Sequence record: LR746137
Strand: one strand, 5' to 3'
DNA: 64,000 nt
DNA from: Escherichia phage vB_EcoM_UP17
The notes below the pieces were generated by a model. That model saw only the letters and a list, made by a program, of their open reading frames with translations, had not been told where the DNA came from and searched no databases. Shown one piece after another: positions 39,137 to 55,035 of the stretch (position 1 is its first letter; each line of letters begins with the position of its first letter). The translations under genes and the position numbers were made by a program.

Positions 39137-39313
39137 ATGTCTGAATTCTTCACAATGGCTTTCTTAGGGATCTATCTGATTATTAGTGCTGTTGGCTTAA
39201 TCATGTCTCTAATAGAGGAAATGGGAATTAAGTGGAATTGTGCATTCGGTATAGCTCTTATGCTCACTCCAGTTTGGATTTACATTTGCAAATCGGTTGA
39301 ACTAATTGGTTAA
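39137..39313 (+). CDS. Small membrane protein
   Basis: 58 aa, two hydrophobic helices; ATG 39137 preferred over track TTG. Confidence 0.45.
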   Translation: MSEFFTMAFLGIYLIISAVGLIMSLIEEMGIKWNCAFGIALMLTPVWIYICKSVELIG

Positions 39314-39323
39314 TGGAGGTAAT

Positions 39324-39662
39324 ATGTTTAGTAAAGAAATGAGAGAGGTAATCGCTACTCTGGTAGTTGATCATGGTGTTGAAGTTGAGCGTCACGTTTG
39401 GAAAGATGAGCCTCCTTTCTTTGATTTGGCATCACGGGCTAAAAGTCACATGTATCTCCTTGAAGATGATAAGGATTTTATTCTGCGTATGCGTTATGAT
39501 CGAGAGTTTAGAATTCCTCTTGACACAGATCCTGGTGATGTAGTATTGTGGTTGGCAGAGCATTTCGCATTTAACGCTCTACATGGAAGAAGTTTTGGTA
39601 ATGAACGTTGGGATACCATTTGTCGTAAACATAATATTGAACCAGAATACGGGAGTATGTAA
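39324..39662 (+). CDS. Hypothetical protein
   Basis: ATG 39324 after GGAGG. Confidence 0.5.
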   Translation: MFSKEMREVIATLVVDHGVEVERHVWKDEPPFFDLASRAKSHMYLLEDDKDFILRMRYDREFRIPLDTDPGDVVLWLAEHFAFNALHGRSFGNERWDTICRKHNIEPEYGSM

Positions 39663-39913
39663 TGTTAAGCGTTAAGCCTAAGATGATCAGTGAAGACCAG
39701 AAAGATTTCATTTACAAGTGTGGACGAATCTGGAGAGAGTATACCAAGGGTAACGAGGTCGTGGTGGTTACTGAACACCAGATTGAAATCTCTGATCTTT
39801 TCGGTGATTATTTGCAAGTGATCAAATTAGGCATTGACAGAGGTTTGGTGCAGGTGTTAACATTATCCCAAGTTGAAGCAGAACACTTAGACAAAATCAT
39901 TGTCGAGTTCTAA
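39662..39913 (+). CDS. Hypothetical protein
   Basis: 83 aa, TAATG overlap. Confidence 0.5.
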   Translation: MLSVKPKMISEDQKDFIYKCGRIWREYTKGNEVVVVTEHQIEISDLFGDYLQVIKLGIDRGLVQVLTLSQVEAEHLDKIIVEF

Positions 39914-39926
39914 GAGGAGAAAGAAT

Positions 39927-40091
39927 ATGATCTCTTTAGAATCAATAGCTTTTAAGAAAGGGTATACCGCAGGGTTCAAGTTTGGTATGTTTAATAAAGT
40001 AAATCCATATTGTCCAAAGACACACAAAAAGGAATTCGAAGAATGGGAAGATGGATTTTCTAAAGGCTACCAGGCAAAGGGTTGGTTGTAA
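39927..40091 (+). CDS. Hypothetical small protein
   Basis: ATG 39927 after AGAGGAG. Confidence 0.45.
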   Translation: MISLESIAFKKGYTAGFKFGMFNKVNPYCPKTHKKEFEEWEDGFSKGYQAKGWL

Positions 40092-40100
40092 GGAGAGAAT

Positions 40101-40265
40101 ATGATTTTAAACTTCATCATCAATTTGTGTTTGACATTGGGACTACTTTGTGCAATAGTATCCCCTCTGGTTGGTGAATATTGTTCAGAACTGGCGATGT
40201 TTATAGTTCTTGGTGCGGCTATTGCTAATATGTTTGTCGCTGCGATTTGTATGTTGTGGGAATAG
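40101..40265 (+). CDS. Small membrane peptide (54 aa), not in ORF track
   Basis: ATG 40101 after AGGAGAG, hydrophobic throughout. Confidence 0.4.
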   Translation: MILNFIINLCLTLGLLCAIVSPLVGEYCSELAMFIVLGAAIANMFVAAICMLWE

Positions 40266-40276
40266 GAGGGAAGTTT

Positions 40277-40633
40277 ATGAAAAAATTAATCTTAGCCACA
40301 TTGCTGGCTACCGTAAGCTTCACCACTTACGCTCAAAAATTTGTAGCAGTTAAAACGGATATTGGTAAAGATGTTGTGATCACAGGCAACAAATTTTACT
40401 ATACACCTGGAAATGGTGTTCTGGAAGAGTGCCAAGATGTTGAGGCATATACAGGAAAAGAAGATAACACGGAACGTCCTTTTTATTCGATTATAGCTAC
40501 TTGCAAAAATGAAATAGTAGCTATTAAACAATACAAAGATGCTCCTGGAGGAGAGTACTTATTAGTCAAGAATATTAAGAGTGAAAAAACTGCAAAGTTT
40601 ACAGTAATTATTTTAAAAGGAGAAACGTTCTAA
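40277..40633 (+). CDS. Secreted protein
   Basis: ATG 40277 after GGAGGG, signal peptide MKKLILATLLATVSFTTYA. Confidence 0.5.
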   Translation: MKKLILATLLATVSFTTYAQKFVAVKTDIGKDVVITGNKFYYTPGNGVLEECQDVEAYTGKEDNTERPFYSIIATCKNEIVAIKQYKDAPGGEYLLVKNIKSEKTAKFTVIILKGETF

Positions 40634-41772
40634 TGAAATACACTATTTTTGGAGATGTAGCTGTTGTAAATAAGGAATATGGCGTTGAAGCTAATAAACT
40701 TCCTGCTGGAGTTTGGGTTGTCAACTGCGATCCGCACGGTAACTACTCTTTAGTGCGTGGCGAAAGTTTCTCTCTTCCGAACACTCTTTATGGGGAAACT
40801 AAAGACCGCGCCGCACATGTTATTAAAACATTTGCTCGTCGTAGTAAAGAAGGTAAAAATACCGGGGTGTTACTGACAGGGACAAAGGGCAGTGGTAAGA
40901 CGATGTTAGCTAAACTGATTAGCATGTCCCTAATGTCCACAGAAGGTTTAGGTATTCCAACCATTTTGGTGACACAGCCTTACACAGATGCTGGATTCTT
41001 AGAATTTATGAGTAAAATTACAGATCGTGCTGTTGTTTTATTTGACGAGTTTGATAAAGTGTACGCTAAGAAAGAAGATCAGGAAGCACTGTTGACCTTG
41101 TTGGATGGAACAGGAAGTGGAAATAAACTTTACATCCTCACTAAAAATAGTGGCTATATCTCGGAATATTTTGTAAACCGTCCTAGTCGTATCTACTACA
41201 GTTTCAATTACGATAAACTGTCTAGTGAAACTATGTTAGATTACTTGGATAAGAACTTGGTAAATAAAAAGCACGTAGATAACTTCCAACGTTTATGGGA
41301 TGTTAGCACAGAGTTGTCTTTCGATGTTATTCAAGGCATTGTAGAAGAATTGAATTTCTATCCAAAAATGACTTTTAAAGAATGTCTTGAAATGATGGGT
41401 ATTTCTTTAGGGAACGATGCTAAATGGAATGTGGCTTCTATCGTAGCTAATGGCAAAACCTTGAAGGTGAATTGGATCAATAACTGGCACGACTTCACCC
41501 CTACTAAGTTTTTGTCGGGTGCTTGTTCCCTGAACATCTATCTACAAAGTTTGAAAGATGATGAAGTGGAAGCAATGGAAACCAACAGTTATGTTATCCT
41601 GGATGAAGATGGTGATCCACATATTGATCTATGTGCAACGGCTGATGGTCTAACTTGTGATCTGATTGAAGGTGGTAAGATTCTGGTTATGAGCACTACA
41701 CCAGGAAACACTCTGCGAGTGGTGCTGGAGCCTGTAACACAACGTTCCACCACACTGGGTAGCGTGTTCTAA
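40633..41772 (+). CDS. P-loop ATPase (AAA+-like)
   Basis: Walker A GTKGSGKT, Walker B VVLFDEFD. Confidence 0.5.
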   Translation: MKYTIFGDVAVVNKEYGVEANKLPAGVWVVNCDPHGNYSLVRGESFSLPNTLYGETKDRAAHVIKTFARRSKEGKNTGVLLTGTKGSGKTMLAKLISMSLMSTEGLGIPTILVTQPYTDAGFLEFMSKITDRAVVLFDEFDKVYAKKEDQEALLTLLDGTGSGNKLYILTKNSGYISEYFVNRPSRIYYSFNYDKLSSETMLDYLDKNLVNKKHVDNFQRLWDVSTELSFDVIQGIVEELNFYPKMTFKECLEMMGISLGNDAKWNVASIVANGKTLKVNWINNWHDFTPTKFLSGACSLNIYLQSLKDDEVEAMETNSYVILDEDGDPHIDLCATADGLTCDLIEGGKILVMSTTPGNTLRVVLEPVTQRSTTLGSVF

Positions 41773-41788
41773 TAAGGCTCCCTTATTA

Positions 41789-41811
41789 AACCCGCTTCGG
41801 CGGGTTTTGTT
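41789..41811 (+). terminator. Rho-independent terminator
   Basis: AACCCGC-TTCG-GCGGGTT then TTTGTT. Confidence 0.55.
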
Positions 41812-41851
41812 ATATTGACTTCAGACTTATAGGGAGAGAGGATAGATATAG

Positions 41852-43054
41852 ATGGCGAAGACGTTAGAACAGTATATAGGAGAATGTAAACCAATAGCGG
41901 AAGCTAAAGGATATGAGATTATAGGGATTGTAGAGCCATTTAAAGGTGTGCACACGAAGATGATCAACTTCTGCCCTAATCATGGGGAGTGGAGAACATC
42001 CACATTTGCCAATTTTAAACGTGGTAAGTCTGGTTGCCCTAGGTGCAAAAATGAGAAAGCAAGACAAGACAACAGTAAAAACCTAGATTATTACCTTTCG
42101 GAATGTAAGCCTATTGCTGAAGCTAAGGGAATCGAGATTTTAGGCATTAATGGAGAGTTTATAGGTGTACATACAAAGATGATCAACCTTTGTCCTGAGC
42201 ACGGGGAATGGCGAACATTAACATTTCATAATCTTAAGGGTGGTAGTGGTTGTCCTAAATGCGGTAACAAAAGATCTAGGAATTCTAAAATACTTCCAGA
42301 CGATCAGCACATACAAGACTTCATTAATACAGGAAAGTTTAAAGAGGGTACAATCTTCACTAAAACAGATAAAAAACGAGGCCGCGATTCTTTATGGTGT
42401 GTAGAGTGTCCTGCCTGCTCTCACGATGAGTATGTGCAAGCTGGGGTGTGTGATGGTAAGTTTTATGTCGCAGGGAATGACCTTAAACAAGGGAAGATTC
42501 CTTGCCGTTGTGCAACTAACTGTCATTACACAGAAGCACAGATTACCTATAGGGTAAAAAAGGCAGTAGAAAGGAAAGGGTATATCTGGGTAGGTTGGAT
42601 CGGGAAACCGTCTGTAAGATTAGGTAAGTTTAAATATGGATGTAAGAAACATGGGGTACAAATAGGACGTGCCAGTGGTTTGTTAAATCATGGCACTGGT
42701 TGTCCGCAATGTGCTAACCAGACACAACAACAATGTTACATTAACCACATTCATGATGAACAAGGTATTCTCTGTGCTTTGAAATTTGGAATTGCCAATA
42801 ATAGTGATCGCCGTATCAAAAAACAAAATAGTCGTAATGTGTTTACTATGAAACAGGTCCAAGTGTGGCACTTCCCTACTGTGAAGCAATGCAAAGATGC
42901 AGAAAAGCGTTGTAAGCGTGTCCTTCACACGGAAGCAGTGAGCAAATATTCTATGCCAGATGGCTACACAGAGACAGTGGAGTTATCTTGCATGGCATCA
43001 ATACAAAATATTTATAAACTTTATGGTGGAACATTACAGGAGGAAACATGTTAG
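41852..43054 (+). CDS. Zn-ribbon repeat protein, possible nuclease-like C-terminal domain
   Basis: Duplicated HTKMINxCPxHGEWRTxTF...GCPxC module; C-terminal ALKFGIANNSDRR. Confidence 0.4.
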   Translation: MAKTLEQYIGECKPIAEAKGYEIIGIVEPFKGVHTKMINFCPNHGEWRTSTFANFKRGKSGCPRCKNEKARQDNSKNLDYYLSECKPIAEAKGIEILGINGEFIGVHTKMINLCPEHGEWRTLTFHNLKGGSGCPKCGNKRSRNSKILPDDQHIQDFINTGKFKEGTIFTKTDKKRGRDSLWCVECPACSHDEYVQAGVCDGKFYVAGNDLKQGKIPCRCATNCHYTEAQITYRVKKAVERKGYIWVGWIGKPSVRLGKFKYGCKKHGVQIGRASGLLNHGTGCPQCANQTQQQCYINHIHDEQGILCALKFGIANNSDRRIKKQNSRNVFTMKQVQVWHFPTVKQCKDAEKRCKRVLHTEAVSKYSMPDGYTETVELSCMASIQNIYKLYGGTLQEETC

Positions 43055-43413
43055 TTGACGTTCAAATTATGCGCAACGAAAGAATGGACTTCTTTGAAGC
43101 AGTAGAGAAACATCTGATCCGATGGGACTATGAATTTGTTCCTGCTGGATGTGGACCAGTAGAGCATTTAGCGGAAGACGACGATGTATACATGATCATT
43201 CGTCAAGTGTACCAGACAGACCAGTGTGAAGAAACTCCCGAACTGATTTTGTTTGAGTGTAAAGATCTTGCAAAATATTTTGACTATGGCGGAAAAGAGG
43301 GTCATAATCTCTCCAGATACAATAAACGTCTACTTATCTTAGACTACATGCGGAACAACAAACACAAACTCATCGACGCAGACGCAGTTTATGGCTACTG
43401 GTGGATGGACTAA
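43048..43413 (+). CDS. Hypothetical protein
   Basis: 121 aa ORF. Confidence 0.5.
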   Translation: MLVDVQIMRNERMDFFEAVEKHLIRWDYEFVPAGCGPVEHLAEDDDVYMIIRQVYQTDQCEETPELILFECKDLAKYFDYGGKEGHNLSRYNKRLLILDYMRNNKHKLIDADAVYGYWWMD

Positions 43414-43426
43414 CAAAGGAGAAACT

Positions 43427-43606
43427 ATGGCACGTTTAGCAGATCATGAAATCTTTAAACCTATTCTGAACCACTATGATGAACTTAAAGCAGTGTTGGA
43501 TTGTTATAGAGAGGATGAAGAACGTTTGGAAGTCAATCTTAAGATAGTTCTGATGAAAGCTTTTCAAGACGGGCAAGCTAAAGTTTTAGAAGGCATGAAA
43601 AAATGA
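43427..43606 (+). CDS. Hypothetical small protein
   Basis: ATG 43427 after AAGGAG. Confidence 0.45.
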   Translation: MARLADHEIFKPILNHYDELKAVLDCYREDEERLEVNLKIVLMKAFQDGQAKVLEGMKK

Positions 43607-44145
43607 GAATAACTGATGAATATGTATTCTTCTTTTCACATAAAGATGTGTTTAGTAATTGGTATATTGCACCCTTTACAGAAACTGAACCAGGTTACAA
43701 TGAGACTTTCTGTTGTGTTGAGCAATATATGATGTGGCGTAAGGCTTTGCTGTTCAAGGATCATGCGATTGCAGCAGCTATCCTTGATCACTCAACTATA
43801 CGTGACAACGAGAGGAAACAAGCATACTACAAACGTATGGGTCGAGCGGTATCTGGTTTTAATAATGATATGTGGGAAGAGAACCGTGAGCGTATTGTTA
43901 TGCGAGGCTTATGCTTGAAATATGTACAGAATCCAGATTTGTATGCAGACTTACACCTTTACCAATACAAAACGTTTGTTGAAGCAAGCCCCTACGATAA
44001 GGTTTACGGAATTGGAATGGGGATGTATGAACCAGGGGTGCTAAACCCTGCTACCTGGAAAGGGCAGAATCTTTTAGGCAAATATCATAATAAACTGATC
44101 GAAATACTTTTCCCAGACAAAATACCGCAAAGACGATATTTGTGA
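43603..44145 (+). CDS. NADAR / YbiA-like domain protein
   Basis: VFFFSHKDVFSNWY...CCVEQYMMWRKALLF. Confidence 0.5.
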   Translation: MRITDEYVFFFSHKDVFSNWYIAPFTETEPGYNETFCCVEQYMMWRKALLFKDHAIAAAILDHSTIRDNERKQAYYKRMGRAVSGFNNDMWEENRERIVMRGLCLKYVQNPDLYADLHLYQYKTFVEASPYDKVYGIGMGMYEPGVLNPATWKGQNLLGKYHNKLIEILFPDKIPQRRYL

Positions 44146-44200
44146 TATTTTAACTTTTTTCATTTTTAGAACAAAGGTGTCACTTTGTAGCACAGAAATA

Positions 44201-44235
44201 AGGCTCCTACAGCACCGTAGAGAGCCTGTTATTTT
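44201..44235 (+). terminator. Rho-independent terminator after NADAR gene
   Basis: AGGCTCCTAC...GTAGAGAGCCT stem-loop then GTTATTTT. Confidence 0.45.
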
Positions 44236-44390
44236 GTCCTATACAAACCCTTGTCTTTTTCAGTTTGCATCACTAGGATTCGATCTGAGTGGGTTCCTGA
44301 AGGTCTGCCAATAAGATTAAAGGTTATCTCAAATTCCCACTACCTATTATCTCAAAAATCCCTCAAATTATTTAAACTTTTTAAGAATTT

Positions 44391-44565
44391 ACAAAAGTGA
44401 AAGTTGAAAACCAAAATTTAAAGTTTAGGAAAATTATCTTAAAATGTTAGATACAAAACAAAACTCAAAAGTCAAGGAAAATTTTAAAAATTTTGCGCGC
44501 CCACAGTATTTAAAGTTTTTTTGCTTTTACAAAAATGAAAGTACAAAAGCAAAATTTAAAGTTTA
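44391..44565. repeat. Two AT-rich ~37 bp direct repeats 138 bp apart
   Basis: ACAAAAGTGAAAGTTGAAAACCAAAATTTAAAGTTTA vs ACAAAAATGAAAGTACAAAAGCAAAATTTAAAGTTTA. Confidence 0.5.
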
Positions 44566-44613
44566 CAAAAATTTTTATGCAGGTGAAAATGAGAAGAGTT
44601 CTCATATGGAAAT

Positions 44614-44635
44614 GCAAATGATAATGATTCGCATT
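44614..44635. promoter_or_regulatory. Fur-box-like motif 1
   Basis: GCAAATGATAATGATTCGCAT, 14/19 to GATAATGATAATCATTATC. Confidence 0.35.
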
Positions 44636-44670
44636 TAAGTTTATAAATGAGATTGATTCTTATTTAATAA

Positions 44671-44693
44671 GGTAAATGATAATCATTCTCATT
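44671..44693. promoter_or_regulatory. Fur-box-like motif 2
   Basis: GGTAAATGATAATCATTCTCATT, 16/19 to Fur consensus; 14-mer identical to motif 3. Confidence 0.4.
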
Positions 44694-46306: not shown

Positions 46307-46864
46307 ATGGGCCGCGAATATGTGATCCAGTCTTGGGTAAAACATGAAGCAGATGATCCGCGCATCATTCCCGATCATCTTATCGATGAATCCACGGGGT
46401 ATAGCGGTGAGCAAATAGGTAACAGATTAGCACGTAGTAACGGCAACGTAAAAGCGCGTTATTTGCGCCCTGGCTGGCTGGCAAATGGTAACGCTGATTT
46501 ATCCAGTGCGGAAGATGCGAGCGACGGCGCGAAAGATAATCCTTTGTACAAAGTTGATCCGGCTTTTCGTGTCCTGGATGAATACCCCAGCAAGATAGCG
46601 GCGCTTGATGAAGCACTGGAAAGTAAGCGCATCACCTGGACCGCTTACAACATGGCAAAAAACGTACTTGATGGTAAATTGATTCAAGCCGAAAGAAAAT
46701 TAGCCAAAATTGCAGCCATAGCCCAGGAGGAAGACGAGGAGACAACGGAAGAGGAAGAGTACGAAGAGATCCCGCCGTTGTTGTGTGTTGATGCTTTTCC
46801 TGATTATCAGCCGACAGAGGAAGAAAAAAGGATCGCACTAGAAAACTTTGAAAATAGTCTTTGA
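46307..46864 (+). CDS. Early protein with acidic C-terminal region
   Basis: ATG 46307 after AGGTGG; EDEETTEEEEYEE. Confidence 0.5.
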   Translation: MGREYVIQSWVKHEADDPRIIPDHLIDESTGYSGEQIGNRLARSNGNVKARYLRPGWLANGNADLSSAEDASDGAKDNPLYKVDPAFRVLDEYPSKIAALDEALESKRITWTAYNMAKNVLDGKLIQAERKLAKIAAIAQEEDEETTEEEEYEEIPPLLCVDAFPDYQPTEEEKRIALENFENSL

Positions 46865-46919
46865 CATATCGCCGCCACTAGCATAATATTTACCACGTAG
46901 GGCGGCAATGGTGCCGCTC
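46861..46919 (+). promoter_or_regulatory. Promoter-hairpin unit
   Basis: TTGACA overlapping upstream stop, 17 nt, TAATAT, hairpin 46900-46919. Confidence 0.5.
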
Positions 46920-46946: not shown

Positions 46947-47042
46947 ATGATTAATAAAGAAAATAGCTTGACGGTTGGAACGATTAACGCTATCATTCTA
47001 GCCGTTCCATTTTGGATTGTAGTGGCGGTTATTATTTTCTAA
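46947..47042 (+). CDS. Hydrophobic micro-peptide (31 aa), not in ORF track
   Basis: ATG after AAGAGG; MINKENSLTVGTINAIILAVPFWIVVAVIIF. Confidence 0.3.
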   Translation: MINKENSLTVGTINAIILAVPFWIVVAVIIF

Positions 47043-49427: not shown

Positions 49428-49430
49428 TCG

Positions 49431-49468: not shown

Positions 49469-49501
49469 GAGAAGAGAAACCACTACTGACAAGGAAACAC
49501 C

Positions 49502-49723
49502 ATGATCACTTTCGCTATTGTCGCCGTTGTTGCTGGTCAAGTTTACGTAAACGATACATTCACCACAGAAGACAAGGCCGCAGGAGACATAACCGCCGTT
49601 TACAATGAGTGCAAGGCAGTAGAAAGGATGTTAGCGCCTTGTATGTTAATGAGTGAACGCCAGGACGGGATAACAGTGTTTACTAACATTGAGACAGGGT
49701 ACCAAATGGTAGTAACAAAATAA
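49502..49723 (+). CDS. Early small protein
   Basis: 73 aa, N-terminus MITFA shared with 49260 ORF. Confidence 0.5.
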   Translation: MITFAIVAVVAGQVYVNDTFTTEDKAAGDITAVYNECKAVERMLAPCMLMSERQDGITVFTNIETGYQMVVTK

Positions 49724-49726
49724 AGC

Positions 49727-49784
49727 TTGACACGGATTTAATTTTCAGTAAACTGTTACACGTAGGGCGGGAATAGTTCCCGCT
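49727..49784 (+). promoter_or_regulatory. Promoter-hairpin unit
   Basis: TTGACA-16-TAAACT, hairpin GCGGGAA-TAG-TTCCCGC. Confidence 0.5.
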
Positions 49785-49801
49785 AAAAAGAGAGAAAGAC
49801 C

Positions 49802-50155
49802 ATGAAAGCACAAAATGCAATTAAAGAGTACATCCTTGCCGCTATCGATTTTAATGATTACGGTATTACAACCGAAAAAGAGAAGATCGCGGAATTGATG
49901 CGCCGTTTTAATTCCGAGTACTGGTACCCTGATAACCAATCACGTTTTAATTATAGTATTGTTAAAGCACTTGCATCATGGTTACAAGGTTTGCCATCAG
50001 ATATTAATATCGCTTTCGAATATTGGGAAATTGATCGCTTGTTAACATCCTGGGGATACATTAAAGAGAATAGCAGCGATGATAAAATCCAACGAGAAAG
50101 GGAAAATTATTGGCTTTATATTGCAGGCGTGATCCTTGCTTGCTCTTATGAATGA
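49802..50155 (+). CDS. Early small protein
   Basis: 117 aa, SD AGAGAGAAAG. Confidence 0.5.
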   Translation: MKAQNAIKEYILAAIDFNDYGITTEKEKIAELMRRFNSEYWYPDNQSRFNYSIVKALASWLQGLPSDINIAFEYWEIDRLLTSWGYIKENSSDDKIQRERENYWLYIAGVILACSYE

Positions 50156-50161
50156 TAAACC

Positions 50162-50215
50162 TTGACAATTTTACAAAACAGTTTAAATTAATAATATAGC
50201 GGCAATGGTGCCGCT
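50162..50215 (+). promoter_or_regulatory. Promoter-hairpin unit
   Basis: TTGACA-16-TAAATT, hairpin AGCGGCA-ATGG-TGCCGCT. Confidence 0.5.
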
Positions 50216-50234
50216 CATATAAAGAGGAAACAAA

Positions 50235-50381
50235 ATGAATACATCTAATCGCGCAGAAAAAATTCAATCTTCCAAGATCCGTAAGGCCTGGAATGAGGAA
50301 GTGATCCGCAAAGGCGACAAGCGCAATAAAACAAAGCGCGGGAAGAGTGACAAATATAATTGGATGGATTTAGAGGATTAA
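50235..50381 (+). CDS. Small basic protein (48 aa), not in ORF track
   Basis: ATG after AAGAGG; Lys/Arg-rich. Confidence 0.35.
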   Translation: MNTSNRAEKIQSSKIRKAWNEEVIRKGDKRNKTKRGKSDKYNWMDLED

Positions 50382-50389
50382 CATAACAA

Positions 50390-50415
50390 GGGCGCACCAA
50401 GCGCCCTTTCTTTTT
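50390..50415 (+). terminator. Rho-independent terminator
   Basis: GGGCGC-ACCAA-GCGCCC then TTTCTTTTT. Confidence 0.6.
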
Positions 50416-50436
50416 ACATGTAGAGGATAAACAAAA

Positions 50437-50622
50437 ATGATTTTAAACGAGCTTAAAACAGCCTACAGCGCAACATTAAAAATAGCCGTGCGTTACCGTG
50501 ACGAATACGGTTTTATCGCGCAGGGCGTGATCCTGGGCTTTTCTGACGATGGTTTGATCTATGTTGATGCACATCACAACAAGGTTAAACCTGAAAACGT
50601 CATTAGCATAAAATATCTTTAA
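50437..50622 (+). CDS. Early small protein
   Basis: 61 aa, SD GAGGATAA. Confidence 0.45.
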   Translation: MILNELKTAYSATLKIAVRYRDEYGFIAQGVILGFSDDGLIYVDAHHNKVKPENVISIKYL

Positions 50623-50628
50623 AAGTGG

Positions 50629-50688
50629 TTGACACCATAACCGGACCTGTTAAACTGTATTACATCAGGCGGGGAATAGTTCCCCACC
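50629..50688 (+). promoter_or_regulatory. Promoter-hairpin unit
   Basis: TTGACA-16-TAAACT, hairpin GGGGAA-TAG-TTCCCC. Confidence 0.5.
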
Positions 50689-50707
50689 ATACAAAAAGGT
50701 AAATATT

Positions 50708-50914
50708 ATGATCACCGCAAAACAAGAAAAAATCATTATCGACGTTGCAGCCGTTGCCGCTATTGCTATTATTGGATCTTATTATGATACCCGTTTCCCG
50801 TCGGCTATGCATGAGGTCGCCGCCGTTGCATCAGTTGGCGTGCTGTTTTACGTTGGTAAACGCTATTTATCACCAATGATTAACAAGCTGACACCGTGGA
50901 AAAATAAAGGTTGA
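50708..50914 (+). CDS. Early small membrane protein
   Basis: 68 aa, hydrophobic core. Confidence 0.5.
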   Translation: MITAKQEKIIIDVAAVAAIAIIGSYYDTRFPSAMHEVAAVASVGVLFYVGKRYLSPMINKLTPWKNKG

Positions 50915-50965
50915 TCCTGTTTTACATTGTGTTATAGTTATCGTGTAGGGCGGCAATGGTGCCGC
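50911..50965 (+). promoter_or_regulatory. Promoter-hairpin unit
   Basis: TTGATC-16-TATAGT, hairpin GGCGGCA-ATGG-TGCCGC. Confidence 0.45.
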
Positions 50966-50985
50966 GCCCCTTTGAGGATGCAATC

Positions 50986-51270
50986 ATGAGTAAAGCTAAC
51001 ACCGTGCTAATGTTTTCCCTGGTTAATGATCCCGCTTACTTGTCCAACATGACGCAGGAGGGTGACACATTAACGGCAACATTCACCAATAAGCTTGACC
51101 GAGTGATCATCATCTCACTGAAAACAGTTAGTAAAGGCTTTTACTCGTTAGCTTATCATTGGATCACCGATACCGATGAGACAAGCCAGGACTATAGCGC
51201 CCCTTTCCCTGAATCAATGGCACGGGAGATCATCGCCGCCGTTGTAAATGATGGTTTGTTTACTGCATAA
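50986..51270 (+). CDS. Early small protein
   Basis: ATG 50986 after GAGGATG. Confidence 0.5.
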   Translation: MSKANTVLMFSLVNDPAYLSNMTQEGDTLTATFTNKLDRVIIISLKTVSKGFYSLAYHWITDTDETSQDYSAPFPESMAREIIAAVVNDGLFTA

Positions 51271-51288
51271 AATAATTCAGAAAAAGGC

Positions 51289-51345
51289 TTGCAATCATTT
51301 TGGGATAATGTATATTTAATGCATAGGGCGGCGGGAATAGTTCCC
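51289..51345 (+). promoter_or_regulatory. Promoter-hairpin unit
   Basis: TTGCAA-17-TATATT, hairpin GGGAA-TAG-TTCCC. Confidence 0.45.
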
Positions 51346-51368
51346 AAAGCAAACGAGAGGATTACACG

Positions 51369-51488
51369 ATGAGCAAGTACACAGTAGAATACACGGTAGA
51401 AAATCCGGCAGTATCCGAAGGTAAAAAGATGACATTTGCCATCAGTATAATCGCTTTCGTTGTCACTATCTTATCAATCATCTTATAA
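51369..51488 (+). CDS. Hydrophobic micro-peptide (39 aa), not in ORF track
   Basis: ATG after GAGAGG; C-terminal TM segment. Confidence 0.3.
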   Translation: MSKYTVEYTVENPAVSEGKKMTFAISIIAFVVTILSIIL

Positions 51489-51498
51489 GGTGCACACC

Positions 51499-51678
51499 AT
51501 GAAAACATCAGACGTTATCAAATCATCCAAGATTATTAAAGAGATCGCCCTTGCCACTGGCATTGAGATCGAGGAAGTGATCGCGCTCAATCTTACAGAA
51601 GACAACTTGCGCAGCTATGAAACGGAAAGCGTGAAAGCAAGTGGCGCGATCCTGGCATATAATCCGGCTAACAAATAA
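51499..51678 (+). CDS. Early small protein
   Basis: ATG 51499, 10 nt after previous stop. Confidence 0.45.
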   Translation: MKTSDVIKSSKIIKEIALATGIEIEEVIALNLTEDNLRSYETESVKASGAILAYNPANK

Positions 51679-51679
51679 C

Positions 51680-51734
51680 TTGACAAGCTGAATCAACCTG
51701 ATAAGATGTATCACATAGGGGCGACAAGCGCCCC
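51680..51734 (+). promoter_or_regulatory. Promoter-hairpin unit
   Basis: TTGACA-16-TAAGAT, hairpin GGGGCG-ACAAG-CGCCCC. Confidence 0.5.
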
Positions 51735-51755
51735 GCCTAACAGAGAGATAGAATC

Positions 51756-52034
51756 ATGACCATCACCAAATTATCCACCGAAGAAATCGAACAAGTGCTG
51801 ACTACTAATCTGCAAGATTGGAAGCGTGAAGCAGATTTGCAAGCGGTTTGCAAGCTGAATGCAGAATTAACGGAAAATGATATTGACACTATTGTTAGCC
51901 CCGATTTTTATGATGCTATTCATGATGATTCGATTATCCTTGAAACACTGTTAGATAACACTTGGATCAATCCTGATTTGGCAGCTTATGACCGTAGCGC
52001 CTTTATCACTATCCACAATATTTACAACCGTTAA
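51756..52034 (+). CDS. Early small acidic protein
   Basis: 92 aa, SD AGAGAGATAG. Confidence 0.5.
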   Translation: MTITKLSTEEIEQVLTTNLQDWKREADLQAVCKLNAELTENDIDTIVSPDFYDAIHDDSIILETLLDNTWINPDLAAYDRSAFITIHNIYNR

Positions 52035-52043
52035 GGGGATAAC

Positions 52044-52154
52044 ATGAATCCGAAAGACATGCAAGCCTGGAAAGGGTATGATGATCTAAGCGCCTTGCGC
52101 AATAAGTCAAGCCGTAACCTTAGACGATTGGAAGCAAAGAAAAAGAAAAAATAG
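52044..52154 (+). CDS. Small basic ORF (36 aa), not in ORF track
   Basis: ATG after AAGGGGA; Lys-rich tail. Confidence 0.3.
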   Translation: MNPKDMQAWKGYDDLSALRNKSSRNLRRLEAKKKKK

Positions 52155-52155
52155 T

Positions 52156-52213
52156 TTGACAAGTCCGCGTAGTCTGGTAATATGTATCTTGTAGGGCGGC
52201 AATGGTGCCGCTC
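52156..52213 (+). promoter_or_regulatory. Promoter-hairpin unit
   Basis: TTGACA-16-TAATAT, hairpin GGGCGGCA-ATGG-TGCCGCTC. Confidence 0.5.
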
Positions 52214-52232
52214 ACAAGAAGAGAGAAAAATC

Positions 52233-52517
52233 ATGAAAATCACAAAAAGCCTGACTAATTATGCAGCACGTCGCGGATTATGTTTAACCGTTGAAAACTT
52301 AGGGAAAGAAGACTTTTTGTGTTTTTGGGAGCTTGAGAATGATTGCGAGTGGATGTTTTCTTATTCTATCTGCGAAGATCAAAACGGTTGTTTGTTAACC
52401 TGGCGCGGTAATATCTATTTACCGGAAGAAATTAAAGAAGAGCTACCAGGTACGATCATGACAGAGAGACAGCTTAAGGAAGTGATCAATTTTGTAGGGC
52501 AAAACATTAAAAAATAA
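52233..52517 (+). CDS. Early small protein
   Basis: ATG 52233 after AAGAAGAGAGA. Confidence 0.5.
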   Translation: MKITKSLTNYAARRGLCLTVENLGKEDFLCFWELENDCEWMFSYSICEDQNGCLLTWRGNIYLPEEIKEELPGTIMTERQLKEVINFVGQNIKK

Positions 52518-52518
52518 T

Positions 52519-52581
52519 TTGACAGCAGGCAAACAACGTAGTAAAGTTTATTACATAGAGCGGCGGAATGGTCCACCGCTC
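52519..52581 (+). promoter_or_regulatory. Promoter-hairpin unit
   Basis: TTGACA-17-TAAAGT, hairpin 52558-52581 with AATGGT loop. Confidence 0.5.
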
Positions 52582-52602
52582 ACAACAGAAGAGAAACAAA
52601 TC

Positions 52603-52773
52603 ATGATCCCGACTATGTTTTATGTATCGCGCAAAGGTCACAATATTTTTTGGTCTGAAGATTTAAATGAAGCTATGACGTTTGCCCGTGATCGTGTTGC
52701 TATCGGTGGCGTTAACATCACCGTAACCGATGAAAATGGTATTGAATACTATAACGGCGACGATGAAGAATAA
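52603..52773 (+). CDS. Early small protein
   Basis: ATG 52603 after AGAAGAGAAA. Confidence 0.5.
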   Translation: MIPTMFYVSRKGHNIFWSEDLNEAMTFARDRVAIGGVNITVTDENGIEYYNGDDEE

Positions 52774-52810
52774 TTGACAACCTGAAAGCTGTATTTTTAA
52801 AATACAGCTT
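52774..52810 (+). promoter_or_regulatory. TTGACA followed by perfect 8-bp hairpin
   Basis: AAGCTGTA-TTTTTAAAA-TACAGCTT directly after a -35-like hexamer. Confidence 0.35.
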
Positions 52811-52831
52811 AGAAAATGTAGTAAATAAACC

Positions 52832-52893
52832 TTGACAATGGTTTGTTATCTGGTAAAGTGTACTACGTAGGGCGGGGCAATGGTGCAACGCCC
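52832..52893 (+). promoter_or_regulatory. Promoter-hairpin unit (variant hairpin)
   Basis: TTGACA-16-TAAAGT, hairpin GGGCGGGGCAATGGTGCAACGCCC. Confidence 0.45.
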
Positions 52894-52911
52894 ATTAATG
52901 AGGGTAGAATC

Positions 52912-53016
52912 ATGTTAGAGAAAATTTTCACGGTTGCAGTGGTTGGCCTGGCGTTATCGGTTGGAGTAGTTGCAACTATGGCTAACATGATCCTATCTTC
53001 CCACGGTATCGGTTAA
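52912..53016 (+). CDS. Hydrophobic micro-peptide (34 aa), not in ORF track
   Basis: ATG after GAGGG; single TM-like segment. Confidence 0.3.
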   Translation: MLEKIFTVAVVGLALSVGVVATMANMILSSHGIG

Positions 53017-53026
53017 GGTGAAACAA

Positions 53027-53242
53027 ATGATCACGAACAAAACAGGCAAAACGGAATTTTTACGCGGCTTACAAGTTGGTAAGCCTGAGATCTGGCATTG
53101 CACGAAGTCCGCGCATAATGAAATGAAAGATTTCACCGCTACTTTACAACGTGTTAAAATATCTATTACGCAGAAAAAAGCCTTATTAGTAGTAGAAAAC
53201 GAGATCCCGCAAACTATTATTATTGTCGAGCGTACAGCATGA
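53027..53242 (+). CDS. Early small protein
   Basis: ATG 53027 after AAGGTG. Confidence 0.45.
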   Translation: MITNKTGKTEFLRGLQVGKPEIWHCTKSAHNEMKDFTATLQRVKISITQKKALLVVENEIPQTIIIVERTA

Positions 53243-53625
53243 AAACAGAAATCATTATTGAAATCATCAACGGCTATAAAGAAGCCTTTATTTTTGCTGA
53301 ATCAGCAAGGGATCATGAAGGTAATTTTATTGATAACTTAGACGATTATGATTTTTCTCCTAGTGCGGATCAACGGATCGCCCAGGATGTAACAGTCTTT
53401 ATTAATGCTAATCTTGCCGCTATCTCTGAGGCAATGAGCGACGGCGCAACAGCCAACCAGATCGGGAATGATTTACATTTTACCCGTAACAGTCACGGCG
53501 TAGGCTTTTGGGATCGCCCTGAAATATACACCACTAACACGGCGAACCGCCTAACCAATGCAGCTAAGTTTATGCCGAACGTGTCGGCTTACATTGGTGA
53601 AGATAATTTGATTTATATTGAATAA
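53239..53625 (+). CDS. Early protein
   Basis: 128 aa, ATGA overlap with upstream gene. Confidence 0.5.
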   Translation: MKTEIIIEIINGYKEAFIFAESARDHEGNFIDNLDDYDFSPSADQRIAQDVTVFINANLAAISEAMSDGATANQIGNDLHFTRNSHGVGFWDRPEIYTTNTANRLTNAAKFMPNVSAYIGEDNLIYIE

Positions 53626-53631
53626 AAAGTA

Positions 53632-53689
53632 TTGACACAGATCGCCAGTGTGCTAATATTTACCACGTAGGGCGGCAATGGTGCCGCTC
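53632..53689 (+). promoter_or_regulatory. Promoter-hairpin unit
   Basis: TTGACA-16-TAATAT, hairpin GGGCGGCA-ATGG-TGCCGCTC. Confidence 0.5.
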
Positions 53690-53708
53690 CCCGAAAAAGG
53701 TAAACATT

Positions 53709-53900
53709 ATGAAAACCATCTCCTACCTGGAATCGAATAACATGTTTTTTGCGCCCGTTGATGAAATCATCGAAGCATTAAACAACGAGGAAGGGATCAA
53801 AGGTTTATCTTATAGCCAACTTTTAGGAATGGTTGCAGCAAATGAAGAGCTTGCTTACTATGTTGAAAATTTTGATGAAGCTGTAATCTTTACAAAATAA
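53709..53900 (+). CDS. Early small acidic protein
   Basis: 63 aa, SD AAAAAGG. Confidence 0.5.
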   Translation: MKTISYLESNNMFFAPVDEIIEALNNEEGIKGLSYSQLLGMVAANEELAYYVENFDEAVIFTK

Positions 53901-53903
53901 TCC

Positions 53904-53960
53904 TTGATCTAATCTCTTAGATAACTTATATTTAATGTGTAGGGCGGCAATGGTGCCGCC
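53904..53960 (+). promoter_or_regulatory. Promoter-hairpin unit
   Basis: TTGATC-17-TATATT, hairpin GGGCGGCA-ATGG-TGCCGCC. Confidence 0.5.
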
Positions 53961-53978
53961 GATAACGAGGAAAGTAAA

Positions 53979-54278
53979 ATGGAAACTATCGCTATTGTTA
54001 CCGTAGAAAAGCTGGTTGTTGGTGATGTATTCGCGTTAATGGTGCCTAACAGCAGCAAGCTGGGCGCTTATGAAGTAATGGATCATAAAAATGAATCATT
54101 TGGCGACGGTTGCACAATGGCGGTAAAATCTTTAAAGGATGGAATCATCCGCCAGGCTAACTGGCACAAAGGGAATCAAGTCGGTTTAATATCAGCTAAT
54201 TTCTTGCCAGAAGAGCAAACGTTAGACCAACTATCAGGCGGTAAGACGTTAGCCGAACTACTGGAAACAGCGATCTAA
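53979..54278 (+). CDS. Early small protein
   Basis: 99 aa, SD GAGGAAAG. Confidence 0.5.
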   Translation: METIAIVTVEKLVVGDVFALMVPNSSKLGAYEVMDHKNESFGDGCTMAVKSLKDGIIRQANWHKGNQVGLISANFLPEEQTLDQLSGGKTLAELLETAI

Positions 54279-54286
54279 TCAACAAA

Positions 54287-54302
54287 GGGGCGGCAACGCC
54301 CC
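54287..54302 (+). promoter_or_regulatory. Leader hairpin with GCAA tetraloop, no obvious promoter
   Basis: GGGGCG-GCAA-CGCCCC, 20 nt before ATG 54323. Confidence 0.4.
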
Positions 54303-54322
54303 ACATCAGAAAGGAAAAGATT

Positions 54323-54559
54323 ATGAGTATTGCAACAGTATTAACCGCCGTTAAAACCGCTGAATCATCCGGCTTGCATGTTGAGCTTATAGATCAACCA
54401 GGTGGCGATCTCCTTGTCCAGGTTTACCCGCCGAAAGTAGGGGATGATCATTATTGGTGTTATTCTGATACGTTCGAACAAGTAGACACGAAAGCGATCA
54501 CAACCTTTATTTTAAAAGCCGTTGAAGAAAATAACTTTCATTATAACATCAATCAATAA
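54323..54559 (+). CDS. Early small protein
   Basis: 78 aa, SD AAAGGAAAAG. Confidence 0.5.
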   Translation: MSIATVLTAVKTAESSGLHVELIDQPGGDLLVQVYPPKVGDDHYWCYSDTFEQVDTKAITTFILKAVEENNFHYNINQ

Positions 54560-54569
54560 ACCATAAGCA

Positions 54570-54584
54570 GGGCGGTAACGCCCC
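54570..54584 (+). promoter_or_regulatory. Leader hairpin with GTAA tetraloop
   Basis: GGGCG-GTAA-CGCCC upstream of ATG 54614. Confidence 0.4.
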
Positions 54585-54613
54585 ATTAAACGCAATAGGA
54601 AGAGGATAGACGT

Positions 54614-54898
54614 ATGAAAAAGATGATCGCAGTAGTTGCCCTGGTTGTTGGTATTAACGCGCCTACACTGGCTAATGAGTTGCCAGAATCCATCACGCTA
54701 ACCGACATCAACGCAGTGAATCGGATCGGTGTTAATTATCGCCTATGCCTTGCCGCTAAAACTTTCCAGGACGGCACGACAGAGTACTACGGATTCGAGG
54801 GTATCCGCTGCGGTGAGCTTGCACGCGACCTTAAGGAAGATCCAGACCTTGAGGCCATACCGATGACCGTAAACGGTAAAGCCCACGTAAACCGCTAA
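54614..54898 (+). CDS. Secreted small protein
   Basis: Signal peptide MKKMIAVVALVVGINAPTLA. Confidence 0.5.
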   Translation: MKKMIAVVALVVGINAPTLANELPESITLTDINAVNRIGVNYRLCLAAKTFQDGTTEYYGFEGIRCGELARDLKEDPDLEAIPMTVNGKAHVNR

Positions 54899-54900
54899 CC

Positions 54901-55035
54901 ATGAGAAAGGTAATCATCACAATGGGGATCGTAGTAGCAACGCTGGCGCTTATCCCTTTCATGGTTGAACATGTGCTGATCAGTGTTGTCCTTATAGTCA
55001 GTGACCTATTGGAAACGGTTGGCACCTGGTTTTAA
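54901..55035 (+). CDS. Hydrophobic micro-peptide (44 aa, or 37 aa from internal ATG 54922), not in ORF track
   Basis: Two hydrophobic segments; weak SD; terminator follows. Confidence 0.3.
   Translation: MRKVIITMGIVVATLALIPFMVEHVLISVVLIVSDLLETVGTWF

Follow-up and report, generated by a model that had tools for sequence, protein, structure and literature searches.

The window, the whole stretch of 64,000 nucleotides that was analysed, comes from a Phapecoctavirus, a phAPEC8-like E. coli myovirus that is 96% identical to phage DE16. Six short open reading frames proposed in a first-pass annotation, here m1 to m6, were all found at the positions given there and encode products of 58, 54, 31, 39, 34 and 44 amino acids. 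They and their associated features are listed below.

39137..39313, + strand: m1, 58 aa; two hydrophobic helices, at about residues 4-25 and 34-50
40101..40265, + strand: m2, 54 aa; two hydrophobic helices, no Lys or Arg, four Cys
40277..40633, + strand: partner gene of m2, 118 aa; Sec-type signal peptide (MKKLILATLLATVSFTTYA-QK), predicted small beta-barrel
46861..46919, + strand: promoter and 5' hairpin of m3; TTGACA at 46861-46866, TAATAT at 46884-46889
46947..47042, + strand: m3, 31 aa; short polar N-terminus (MINKENSLTVGT), then one hydrophobic helix to the C-terminus
51289..51345, + strand: promoter and hairpin of m4, weaker; TTGCAA at 51289-51294, TATATT at 51311-51316, hairpin at 51326-51345
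51369..51488, + strand: m4, 39 aa; predicted tail-anchored, polar N-terminal 20 residues, C-terminal hydrophobic helix
52832..52893, + strand: promoter and 5' hairpin of m5; TTGACA at 52832-52837, TAAAGT at 52854-52859, hairpin at 52870-52893; drives m5 and the next two genes
52912..53016, + strand: m5, 34 aa; MLEK, one hydrophobic helix, tail SSHGIG
54614..54898, + strand: partner gene of m6, 94 aa; Sec-type signal peptide (MKKMIAVVALVVGINAPTLA-NE), two conserved Cys
54901..55035, + strand: m6, 44 aa; MRK, one hydrophobic helix (residues 4-22), shorter second hydrophobic segment
55042..55071, + strand: terminator-like hairpin and T-run, closing the operon after m6

The six products are strongly hydrophobic, with GRAVY values of 0.87-1.79 and best 19-residue Kyte-Doolittle means of 2.34-2.77. 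Hydropathy agrees with the earlier assignment of one or two transmembrane helices to each, there being two in m1 and m2, one in m3, m4 and m5, and one with a short second segment in m6. When ATG-initiated ORFs of 30-62 aa on the + strand were screened for a 19-residue mean of at least 2.3, exactly these six reached the threshold in the whole 64-kb window; mononucleotide shuffles of the region gave on average 0.05 such ORFs. Almost certainly, m1 to m6 encode small proteins of the host inner membrane. The shapes predicted from hydropathy are helical hairpins for m1 and m2, where m2 has no positive charge that would set its orientation, and tail-anchored single-pass proteins for m3 and m4; m5 would cross the membrane once and end in a short invariant motif, and m6 would be a single-pass protein to which a second, short hydrophobic segment is added.

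It is clear from comparison with related phages that the frames are maintained. Start, stop and length of each are retained in 5-11 related genomes or loci, down to 40-50% amino-acid identity, and in each set of homologues both other + strand frames are interrupted by stops, whereas the proposed one is open and has the lowest pN/pS of the three. The pooled pN/pS values (m1 0.40, m2 0.28, m3 0.18, m4 0.36, m5 0.28 and m6 0.40) lie within the range of 14 neighbouring accepted genes (0.02-0.58). In m3, m4 and m6 there are no stops in the antisense -1 frame either, and its pN/pS is only slightly higher, as is expected of a mirror effect; the strand of these three was assigned from promoter, Shine-Dalgarno and operon context. 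A Shine-Dalgarno sequence had been claimed for every ORF, and one is present for m1 (GGAG), m2 (AGGAG), m3 (AAGAGG), m4 (GAGAGG) and m5 (GAGGG) but not for m6; relatives keep the ribosome-binding site even in places where the DNA ahead of it differs. On this comparative evidence m1 to m6 are genuine protein-coding genes, conserved under purifying selection. The first-pass annotation had named a lack of conservation in related phages as evidence against its reading; since the frames are conserved, that reading is not refuted. The conserved frames, the purifying selection and the dominance of hydrophobic helices in the products give good support to its proposal that small membrane peptides are translated here.

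The placement of all six in promoter-hairpin units holds for half of them. The near-consensus promoters of the region have the form TTGACA-N16-TAnnnT, and three lie directly upstream of a micro-ORF; m3, m4 and m5 stand directly behind a promoter-hairpin unit, whereas m1, m2 and m6 do not. The gene m3 is the sole cistron of its own cassette, whose 5' hairpin is GGGCGGCAATGGTGCCGCTC at 46900-46919. A 44-aa version of m3, beginning at an upstream ATG (46908), was rejected as an artefact, that ATG lying in the hairpin loop (CAATGG) that the other cassettes have as well. The hairpin upstream of m4 is degenerate (fold -7.8 kcal/mol), and m4 is a first cistron, followed by 51499-51678; m5 heads an operon that continues with 53027-53242 and 53239-53625. 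An operon lacking such units contains m1, which starts 2 nt past the stop of 38778-39134, and m2 as internal cistrons, and m6 comes last among the cistrons of a unit that has a hairpin only. Judging from the promoter consensus only, host sigma-70 RNA polymerase would transcribe m1 to m6 right after infection.

The arrangement resembles the promoter-early stem-loop (PeSL) cassettes of T4-type phages (PMC2839356, PMC4122927), a likeness of regulatory units and not of proteins: a repeated cassette stands ahead of many small, variable early ORFs, related genera differ in the order of their cassettes, and m5, itself a cassette gene, seems to have been exchanged horizontally. It differs in that the hairpin follows the -10 hexamer at a distance of about 10 nt and is found at the transcript's 5' end, whereas the PeSL hairpin is a terminator upstream of the promoter; furthermore, hairpins are also found here alone between cistrons.

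The operon context bears on whether these ORFs could be something other than genes for functional proteins, namely chance ORFs in T-rich DNA, or cistrons of the leader or uORF type where it is translation itself that matters, for the expression of the next gene. Short hydrophobic off-frame ORFs do abound on the opposite strand of the window, and m1, m2, m4 and m5 are each followed by another gene after 9-13 nt, where coupling effects are possible. Against this, purifying selection on the amino acids equals that on neighbouring genes, homologues only 40-50% identical still agree in length and motifs, the count of six far exceeds that from shuffles, and m3 has no downstream partner in its cassette. 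Such an origin is therefore extremely improbable.

To call the ORFs a cluster is misleading: they belong to six unrelated families scattered among about 46 genes. They are not one system but independent accessory or genus-core early genes with a common size class. Five of the products (all except m3) match full-length PHROG profiles with E values of 1e-22 to 1e-42. These families are without assigned function, only phrog_10979 carrying a label, "membrane protein". The match of m1, whose two helices are linked by an acidic loop (EEMGIKWN), is to phrog_22639 (E 1.5e-42), and that of m2 to phrog_27459 (E 1.4e-38). Each was found in 70 phage records, and the records that reach 90% identity or more in their best match to the region also number 70. 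Beyond these, Justusliebigvirus has an m1-like 57-aa protein with 26% identity, and a profile search with m1 of 1.84 billion representatives gave one true relative. In phiWec188 the homologue of m2 shares its length and stop at 47% identity.

For m3 there was no PHROG match; it was found in 113 records from Phapecoctavirus and Justusliebigvirus, and in the latter its Shine-Dalgarno sequence is kept despite a different upstream sequence. The product of m4 matches phrog_10979 (E 5.9e-23) and was found in 165 records, in 54 of them with more than 80% identity; its polar N-terminal motif xxYxVxNPAxxEG[KR]K is conserved while the helix varies, and a Justusliebigvirus homologue of 39 aa, about 40% identical, has its own Shine-Dalgarno sequence. 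The match of m5 is to phrog_14631 (E 8.5e-22). Two of its alleles, the window type in 156 records and the AlexBoehm type in 72, are always 34 aa long; these and a third variant in UPEC06 share an invariant C-terminal ATMxNMILSxxGIG, the N-terminal half of the helix being variable.

The m6 product matches phrog_16005 (E 8.6e-30) and was found in 161 records, Vequintavirus among them. In slur16 the start codon is GTG and Leu takes the place of the internal Met, which supports the long start of m6; its second hydrophobic segment contains a conserved SDLL. It starts 2 nt past the stop of 54614-54898 (TAAccATG), with an ATGA overlap at this junction in ESCO5 and phiWec188, and is translationally coupled to that gene. 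The gene m2 lies directly upstream of, and is coupled with, the exported-protein gene 40277-40633, a pairing kept in phiWec188. Both partner genes, with their signal peptides, are retained as pairs with m2 and m6 in diverged phages; neither partner protein gave an informative fold match.

Searches of PHROG, Pfam, NCBIfam and PADLOC models with m1 to m6 returned no holin, antiholin, superinfection-exclusion (Imm/Sp-type), toxin or defence-system match. Their likeliest role is that of early accessory inner-membrane proteins which act on the host envelope, and the account that we favour overall, as probable, is one of unrelated early genes with inner-membrane products and envelope components as targets. 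Once inserted, the products might act stoichiometrically, helix against helix, on envelope components of the host or of an incoming phage, and the outcome could be host takeover or superinfection exclusion, as with T4 Imm/Sp or bacterial small membrane regulators; m2 and m6 might cooperate with the adjoining exported proteins (40277-40633 and 54614-54898). That they exclude superinfecting phages or modulate membrane proteins of the host is a reasonable guess. The analogy to Imm and Sp, early T4 proteins of the inner membrane that act in superinfection exclusion, is functional only. These too are small phage proteins with hydrophobic helices; m1 to m6 are apparently early, and two are paired with exported proteins, but they have no sequence similarity to any function-annotated PHROG or Pfam family, and their T4 counterparts have more residues (Imm 83, Sp 97 aa). 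Bacteria also encode small membrane proteins, among them the regulators MgrB, AcrZ, KdpF and MgtS and the type I toxins Hok, TisB, Ibs and Ldr, which resemble m1 to m6 in having 30-60 aa and consisting essentially of a single hydrophobic helix, to which a short polar end may be added; the proteins described here differ in being phage-encoded, limited to three phage genera and without NCBIfam or Pfam match.

The type I toxins do resemble m3, m4 and m5 in size (31-39 aa) and in their one-helix or tail-anchored build, and strong constitutive-type promoters lie directly upstream of these three. They could be membrane-damaging peptides whose oligomers in the inner membrane lower the proton-motive force and so aid host shut-off or the timing of the infection cycle. 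We consider this unlikely: no toxin model of NCBIfam, Pfam or PADLOC was matched, conservation sits in the C-terminus of m5 and the polar N-terminus of m4, which fits binding to a specific partner better than a generic pore, and a phage needing an energised host to replicate about 150 kb would hardly depolarise it early. The holin or antiholin function suggested in the first-pass annotation, or another role in lysis timing, would suit the small size and the one or two hydrophobic helices, and position by itself is not exclusive, the putative holin of rV5 not being adjacent to the lysin (PMC3606486). Yet no holin or lysis family of PHROG or Pfam was matched at E <= 0.1-1, and the ORFs lie in an early-type region, behind sigma-70 promoters and not near lysis genes. 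Moreover, a charged hydrophilic C-terminal tail is listed as a holin feature for rV5, where the candidate gp129 has 78 aa, two transmembrane domains and a Lys/Arg-rich C-terminus (PMC3606486); the C-termini of m1 to m6 (KSVELIG, E, none, none, SSHGIG and ETVGTWF, respectively) form no charged tail, and most of the micro-proteins are much shorter. Lysis functions are thus very unlikely.

Two further readings concern only some of the genes. As m1 and m2 share an operon just 5' of an AAA+ ATPase gene (40633-41772; in a related BASEL phage its annotation is "FtsH-like protease") whose product has no hydrophobic segment, they could tether this soluble ATPase or other early phage proteins to the membrane; a Justusliebigvirus relative has the m1-like protein and a multi-helix membrane protein there, before the homologous ATPase. 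The argument is one of position and says nothing about m3 to m6, and tethering seems distinctly unlikely. Alternatively, m5 may be a pre-peptide with a Sec signal peptide at residues 1-24 (n-region MLEK or MKQK, variable h-region, c-region TMA or TMS), from which leader peptidase would free NMILSS(H/N)GIG into the periplasm, the decapeptide serving there as ligand or signal. The variable hydrophobic core followed by invariant ATM(A/S) and NMILSxxGIG (three alleles, 228 records) and the small residues at -3 and -1 (T and A/S) would fit. However, the hydrophobic run of about 24 residues, including NMIL, is more like an anchor than a signal peptide, a precursor of 34 aa would be exceptionally small for the Sec pathway of E. 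coli, and no candidate for a receptor emerged, making a released peptide very improbable.

All six ORFs fall below the default 60-aa ORF cut-off and two, m5 and m6, are often unannotated in public phage records, so it is plausible that the ORF track missed them, as had been claimed. The gene m5 has no annotation in DE16, in anhysbys or in about half of the records among the matches listed, and the m4 homologue is unannotated in JohannJBalmer; m3 is annotated as a CDS in DE16, anhysbys, P3322 and JohannJBalmer. Large lytic phages commonly carry genes of this kind, and m1 to m6 are ordinary, catalogued genes: their GenBank counterparts are CDS in phAPEC8-, alia- and rV5-like phages, and near-identical copies have already been deposited, for example in DE16, P3322, JohannJBalmer and AlexBoehm.

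Six small hydrophobic ORFs, m1 to m6, were found at the positions and with the sizes given to them in the first-pass annotation, and its description of each as essentially one or two hydrophobic helices is borne out by hydropathy; the best 19-residue mean lies between 2.34 and 2.77 for all six. The ORFs are:

39137-39313, + strand: m1, 58 aa, two helices with a short acidic loop between them
40101-40265, + strand: m2, 54 aa, two helices with a short acidic loop between them
46947-47042, + strand: m3, 31 aa, polar N-terminus and one helix reaching the C-terminus
51369-51488, + strand: m4, 39 aa, polar N-terminus and one helix reaching the C-terminus
52912-53016, + strand: m5, 34 aa, MLEK, one helix and the tail SSHGIG
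54901-55035, + strand: m6, 44 aa, MRK, one helix and a shorter second hydrophobic stretch

Past the last hydrophobic segment the C-termini read KSVELIG, E, none, none, SSHGIG and ETVGTWF, from m1 to m6 respectively. When a best 19-residue Kyte-Doolittle mean of 2.3 was used as the cut-off, these six were the only + strand ATG ORFs of 30-62 aa to pass in the whole 64-kb window, and shuffling of the region gave 0.05 qualifying hydrophobic ORFs on average as against the 6 observed. It is very probable that m1 to m6 encode small membrane proteins. No significant pairwise similarity was found among them and, since they share none, the "cluster" that had been proposed is a class defined by size and composition rather than one system.

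The region carrying the six ORFs (39000-55100) is 96% identical to Escherichia phage vB_EcoM_DE16 over 97% of its length, and about 70 other records match it at 90% identity or above; these matches are phAPEC8-like myoviruses of ~150 kb, genus Phapecoctavirus, subfamily Stephanstirmvirinae. Farther matches come from Justusliebigvirus (~83%) and the rV5-like Vequintavirus (~77-80% over parts). The GC skew flips at ~38 kb of the window, and between there and ~56 kb lie roughly 46 genes, mostly small, on the + strand. Apart from an AAA ATPase and a NADAR-domain protein, all of the other neighbours of m1 to m6 belong to phage protein families (PHROGs) without an assigned function.

The homologous region was taken from ten phages (5 Phapecoctavirus, 3 Justusliebigvirus and 2 Vequintavirus) and searched with the six peptides. 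The first-pass annotation had named frames not kept in relatives among the findings that would refute it; the frames are conserved, and for each of the six between 5 and 11 genomes have a copy of equal length with the same start and stop. The architecture survives in divergent copies, as in m2 of phiWec188 (47% identical) and m5 and m6 of AlexBoehm (50% and 64%), and Justusliebigvirus has an m1-like protein (26% identity) and an m4-like protein of 39 aa (~40% identity). In each set of homologues only one + strand frame, the proposed one, is without stops, and among the + strand frames pN/pS is lowest in it; its third positions are shared with an antisense frame, which mirrors its pN/pS, as expected. 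Pooled over comparisons of the window with each locus, pN/pS is 0.40 for m1, 0.28 for m2, 0.18 for m3, 0.36 for m4, 0.28 for m5 and 0.40 for m6, all of which lie within 0.02-0.58, the range that the same computation gives for 14 accepted genes nearby. Furthermore, a ribosome-binding site (SD) is found at the right distance despite diverged upstream DNA for m3 in Justusliebigvirus and phiWec188, m2 in phiWec188, m5 in AlexBoehm, and the m1-like and m4-like genes. On the shuffle expectation, the conservation of frame and the pN/pS values, chance ORFs were rejected, and all six can with high confidence be read as translated genes from these comparisons. A search of the literature for transcriptomic, ribosome-profiling or functional data on m1 to m6 found none.

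The distribution of the six was counted by tblastn against 50,697 phage records.

Records matched by each ORF
m1: 70 records, equal to the number matching the region at 90% identity or above
m2: 70 records, equal to the number matching the region at 90% identity or above
m3: 113 records, Phapecoctavirus and Justusliebigvirus, with weaker matches in some Klebsiella phages
m4: 165 records, 54 above 80% identity and the remainder weak, including ~52-kb Salmonella phages
m5: 156 records, all three genera
m6: 161 records, Phapecoctavirus and Vequintavirus

Because their counts equal that of the records matching the whole region, m1 and m2 look close to genus-wide. The AlexBoehm-type allele of m5 is present in a further 72 Vequintavirus records, also at exactly 34 aa, which brings the m5 family to 228 records in three genera, with two main alleles and a third variant in UPEC06, always of 34 aa. 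Outside these phages the families appear to be essentially non-existent, m1 having been searched widely: it has 8 near-identical clusters among 5.8 billion proteins, and a profile of these, run against 1.84 billion representatives, added just one true relative. Five of the ORFs match a PHROG profile HMM over the entire protein and the entire profile (m1, phrog_22639, 1.5e-42; m2, phrog_27459, 1.4e-38; m4, phrog_10979, 5.9e-23; m5, phrog_14631, 8.5e-22; m6, phrog_16005, 8.6e-30), and the 31-aa m3 matches none at E <= 0.1. Four of these families are listed as "unknown function"; phrog_10979 alone is labelled "membrane protein" (moron, auxiliary metabolic gene and host takeover).

For every ORF there is at least one GenBank record in which it is annotated. 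DE16 has five of the six as CDS, with m6 given a shortened start and m5 left out, and m5, like m6, goes unannotated in about half of the records listed. The six are thus already in public annotation and, m3 excepted, in PHROGs, and count among the uncharacterised early genes of phages, a well-known class; the practical value lies mainly in annotation, in that the 31-58-aa hydrophobic ORFs of this phage group are real genes, for which GenBank is inconsistent in the case of m5, m6 and the Justusliebigvirus m4-like gene. The m4-like gene of the BASEL phage JohannJBalmer (17722-17841, 39 aa) has its own SD, is unannotated, and overlaps the start of the annotated CDS bas62_0127 in another frame. 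Just upstream of it, at 17617-17712, is a 31-aa hydrophobic micro-gene, bas62_0126, MPYLHLFFGILLTGSFFFCMLVSIVNHVLRH.

All six had been credited with SDs and placed in promoter-hairpin units, in which a sigma-70-type promoter is followed by a 5' hairpin. A recognisable SD is present 6-8 nt upstream of m1 to m5; m6 has none, and starts 2 nt past the stop codon of 54614-54898. Only m3, m4 and m5 stand directly behind a promoter-hairpin unit, that of m4 being a weakened copy. The m1 and m2 ORFs are internal cistrons of an operon region that starts near 38.4 kb and has no such units, and m6 is the final cistron of a hairpin-only unit, followed by a terminator-like hairpin at 55042-55071. Longer starts were considered for m1 (TTG 39125), m3 (ATG 46908) and m5 (TTG 52843) and rejected; the additional codons of m1 are the end of the upstream gene, the m3 candidate lies within the CAATGG loop common to the hairpins, that of m5 is inside the promoter, and in all three the SD precedes the shorter start. 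For m6 it was the short start of the DE16 annotation (Met8) that was rejected. The long form is supported because the first seven residues are conserved, because slur16 has a GTG start and Leu at the place of the internal Met, and because in ESCO5 and phiWec188 the end of the upstream gene overlaps the m6 start as ATGA, an arrangement which, as read from the DNA, is classic translational coupling. The start of m6 is thereby fixed: the gene has the long form and is coupled to the one before it.

At least 18 repeated promoter-hairpin units lie at 45.3-55.3 kb (45331-55270; for example 46861-46919, 52832-52893 and 53632-53680). They follow the pattern TTGACA-N16/17-TAnnnT, ~10 nt, a GC-rich hairpin of 6-8 bp, SD and start codon. 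In 18 of them the hairpin begins ~10 nt downstream of the -10 hexamer, and it would lie at the 5' end of the mRNA. The stems vary in sequence (GGCGGCA/UGCCGCU, GCGGGAA/UUCCCGC, GGGGCG/CGCCCC) with pairing kept, and hairpin energy compared with shuffles has a mean z of -4.0. In the T4-type promoter-early stem-loop (PeSL) cassette the stem-loop stands before the promoter (PMC2839356, PMC4122927), whereas this terminator-promoter order, with the stem-loop upstream of the early promoter, is not that of the units here. There are also promoter-less hairpins between cistrons, at 54287-54302 (GGGGCG-GCAA-CGCCCC) and 54570-54583 (GGGCG-GTAA-CGCCC), with GNRA-type loops (GCAA or GUAA); the lack of both a promoter and a T-run suggests an element for RNA stability or processing rather than a terminator.

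A T4-type PeSL cassette is also a repeated unit linked to the shuffling of small ORFs among related phages. Here the order of the cassettes differs between genera, and the m3 cassette stands elsewhere in the gene order of JohannJBalmer. Between slur16 and the window only 4 of 102 coding positions of m5 differ (~96% identity), and yet the m5 protein is only 50% identical to that of AlexBoehm, though slur16 and AlexBoehm are both Vequintavirus (compared were 52912-53016 of the window, L007 15561-15665 and L008 15671-15775). The gene after m5 (53027-53242) is much better conserved, at 86-100% across ten loci. The differing cassette order and the contrast between the two m5 comparisons suggest exchange of modules; in the case of m5 a single micro-gene seems to have been replaced by another allele or exchanged horizontally.

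Conservation within the proteins is uneven. The helix of m5 varies in its N-terminal half, while xGxxATMxNMILSxxGIG is invariant across the three alleles; m4 has a conserved polar motif at its N-terminus, (V/I)(E/Q)Y(T/S)VxNPAxxEG(K/R)K, and a variable helix. These patterns point to specific interactions rather than to generic membrane damage. Two of the ORFs are also paired with genes for exported proteins. The two-helix m2 is followed by a predicted beta-barrel protein of 118 aa with a Sec-type signal peptide (40277-40633), the 11-nt gap holding an SD, and the pair is kept in phiWec188, where the partner has clearly diverged as well as m2. The m6 ORF is preceded by a 94-aa signal-peptide protein of predicted alpha/beta fold; both are present in 7 of 7 loci and both absent in the 3 Justusliebigvirus loci. 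Directly downstream of m2 and its partner is a 379-aa AAA ATPase without a hydrophobic segment (40633-41772), named "FtsH-like protease" in JohannJBalmer.

In the reading that we favour, m1 to m6 would be early accessory inner-membrane proteins that directly contact envelope components of the host or of an incoming phage; T4 Imm/Sp and the small membrane regulators of bacteria would be the analogues, and the outcome would be takeover of the host or exclusion of superinfecting phage. The consensus type of the upstream sigma-70 promoters suggests that expression is early. The coding and membrane parts of this reading are well supported; the functional part, drawn from analogy, is tentative and rather doubtful. 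Exclusion proteins of the T4 Imm/Sp kind are small inner-membrane proteins that stop a superinfecting phage at DNA entry or at its tail lysozyme. Hydropathy predicts membrane helices in the six, and their location in the inner membrane is putative. They have no sequence similarity to known exclusion proteins, matching their own PHROGs only and nothing in Pfam. No model in Pfam, NCBIfam or PADLOC matches any of them, and no annotated holin, lysis or superinfection-exclusion PHROG does so at E <= 0.1.

Of five alternatives the most likely is that the ORFs encode toxin-like peptides that depolarise the membrane. The type I toxin description (hydrophobic, <60 aa, one helix) fits m3, m4 and m5, at 31-39 aa, but no curated toxin model (NCBIfam, Pfam, PADLOC) matches, and the conserved motifs of m4 and m5 favour specific contacts. 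Next in likelihood is that they anchor phage proteins that have no transmembrane segment, for example the adjacent AAA ATPase. Proteins that time lysis come third. The holin/antiholin role that had been proposed finds a likeness in the one or more transmembrane helices predicted in all six, by hydropathy only; however, the rV5 paper, which counted 15 transmembrane proteins and put forward gp129, of 78 aa, as the holin, lists a hydrophilic, highly charged C-terminal tail as a holin feature (PMC3606486), and none of m1 to m6 has such a tail. Nor is there a match to a lysis family of Pfam, PHROG or NCBIfam (E <= 0.1-1). The holin idea is weak because the charged tail is missing, because the promoters are near-consensus sigma-70 promoters in a region of early type, and because most of the six are far shorter than 78 aa. 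Fourth, and for m5 only, is a signal peptide that releases a conserved decapeptide, and least likely are non-functional or leader-type ORFs, against which stand the kept frames and low pN/pS.

That the m5 family or the two gene pairs are specific effectors of a new kind is improbable. In that case m5 could dock on one particular inner-membrane or periplasmic protein of the host, or be cleaved to free the decapeptide, and each pair could make up a two-component module for superinfection exclusion or anti-defence with no relation to the systems described so far. Nothing points to an unusual mechanism, and the findings are not surprising enough to change current views. They enlarge the pool of uncharacterised small membrane proteins made early by big lytic phages; conserved proteins this tiny are cheap to synthesise and test, and m1 to m6 are reasonable candidates for a screen of phage factors against the E. 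coli envelope or membrane-bound defence systems.

Several other features of the region were seen. The product of 50708-50914 (68 aa, two moderately hydrophobic segments, phrog_30003), which has its own promoter-hairpin unit, is a putative seventh small membrane protein, absent from the first-pass annotation. That of 47134-47496 is labelled "membrane protein" in DE16, anhysbys, ESCO5 and ESCO8, which looks like a propagated mis-annotation because it is without a hydrophobic segment (best 19-residue hydropathy 0.62); equating this gene with the "putative holin" bas56_0110 of AlexBoehm proved wrong. The 180-aa protein of 43603-44145 has a NADAR domain (Pfam PF08719, E 3.4e-35), is labelled "GTP cyclohydrolase II" or "YbiA-like N-glycosidase" in relatives, and may be an enzyme that serves in counter-defence or in the processing of ADP-ribose. 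The 400-aa "endonuclease" gene 41852-43054 contains an 88-nt direct repeat (41939-42026 and 42158-42245, 77% identity) that reflects a duplicated Cys-rich module of the protein.

A lone minus-strand gene of 88 aa (44955-45221), annotated in DE16 and anhysbys, interrupts the otherwise + strand early region and adjoins a palindrome-rich non-coding stretch. Palindromes of the form AAATGAnAAnnATTCnCATTT occur at 44587-44701, within the gene-poor stretch 44150-45330, and at 57274-57302 and 57453-57481, several at 29-nt spacing. One is 3 mismatches away from the Fur-box consensus of E. coli, GATAATGATAATCATTATC (chance expectation 0.07), and the palindromes may serve as operators or to titrate Fur. 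Finally, between 51756-52034 and the next promoter there is an extremely basic ORF of 36 aa with an SD (52044-52154, MNPKDMQAWKGYDDLSALRNKSSRNLRRLEAKKKKK).
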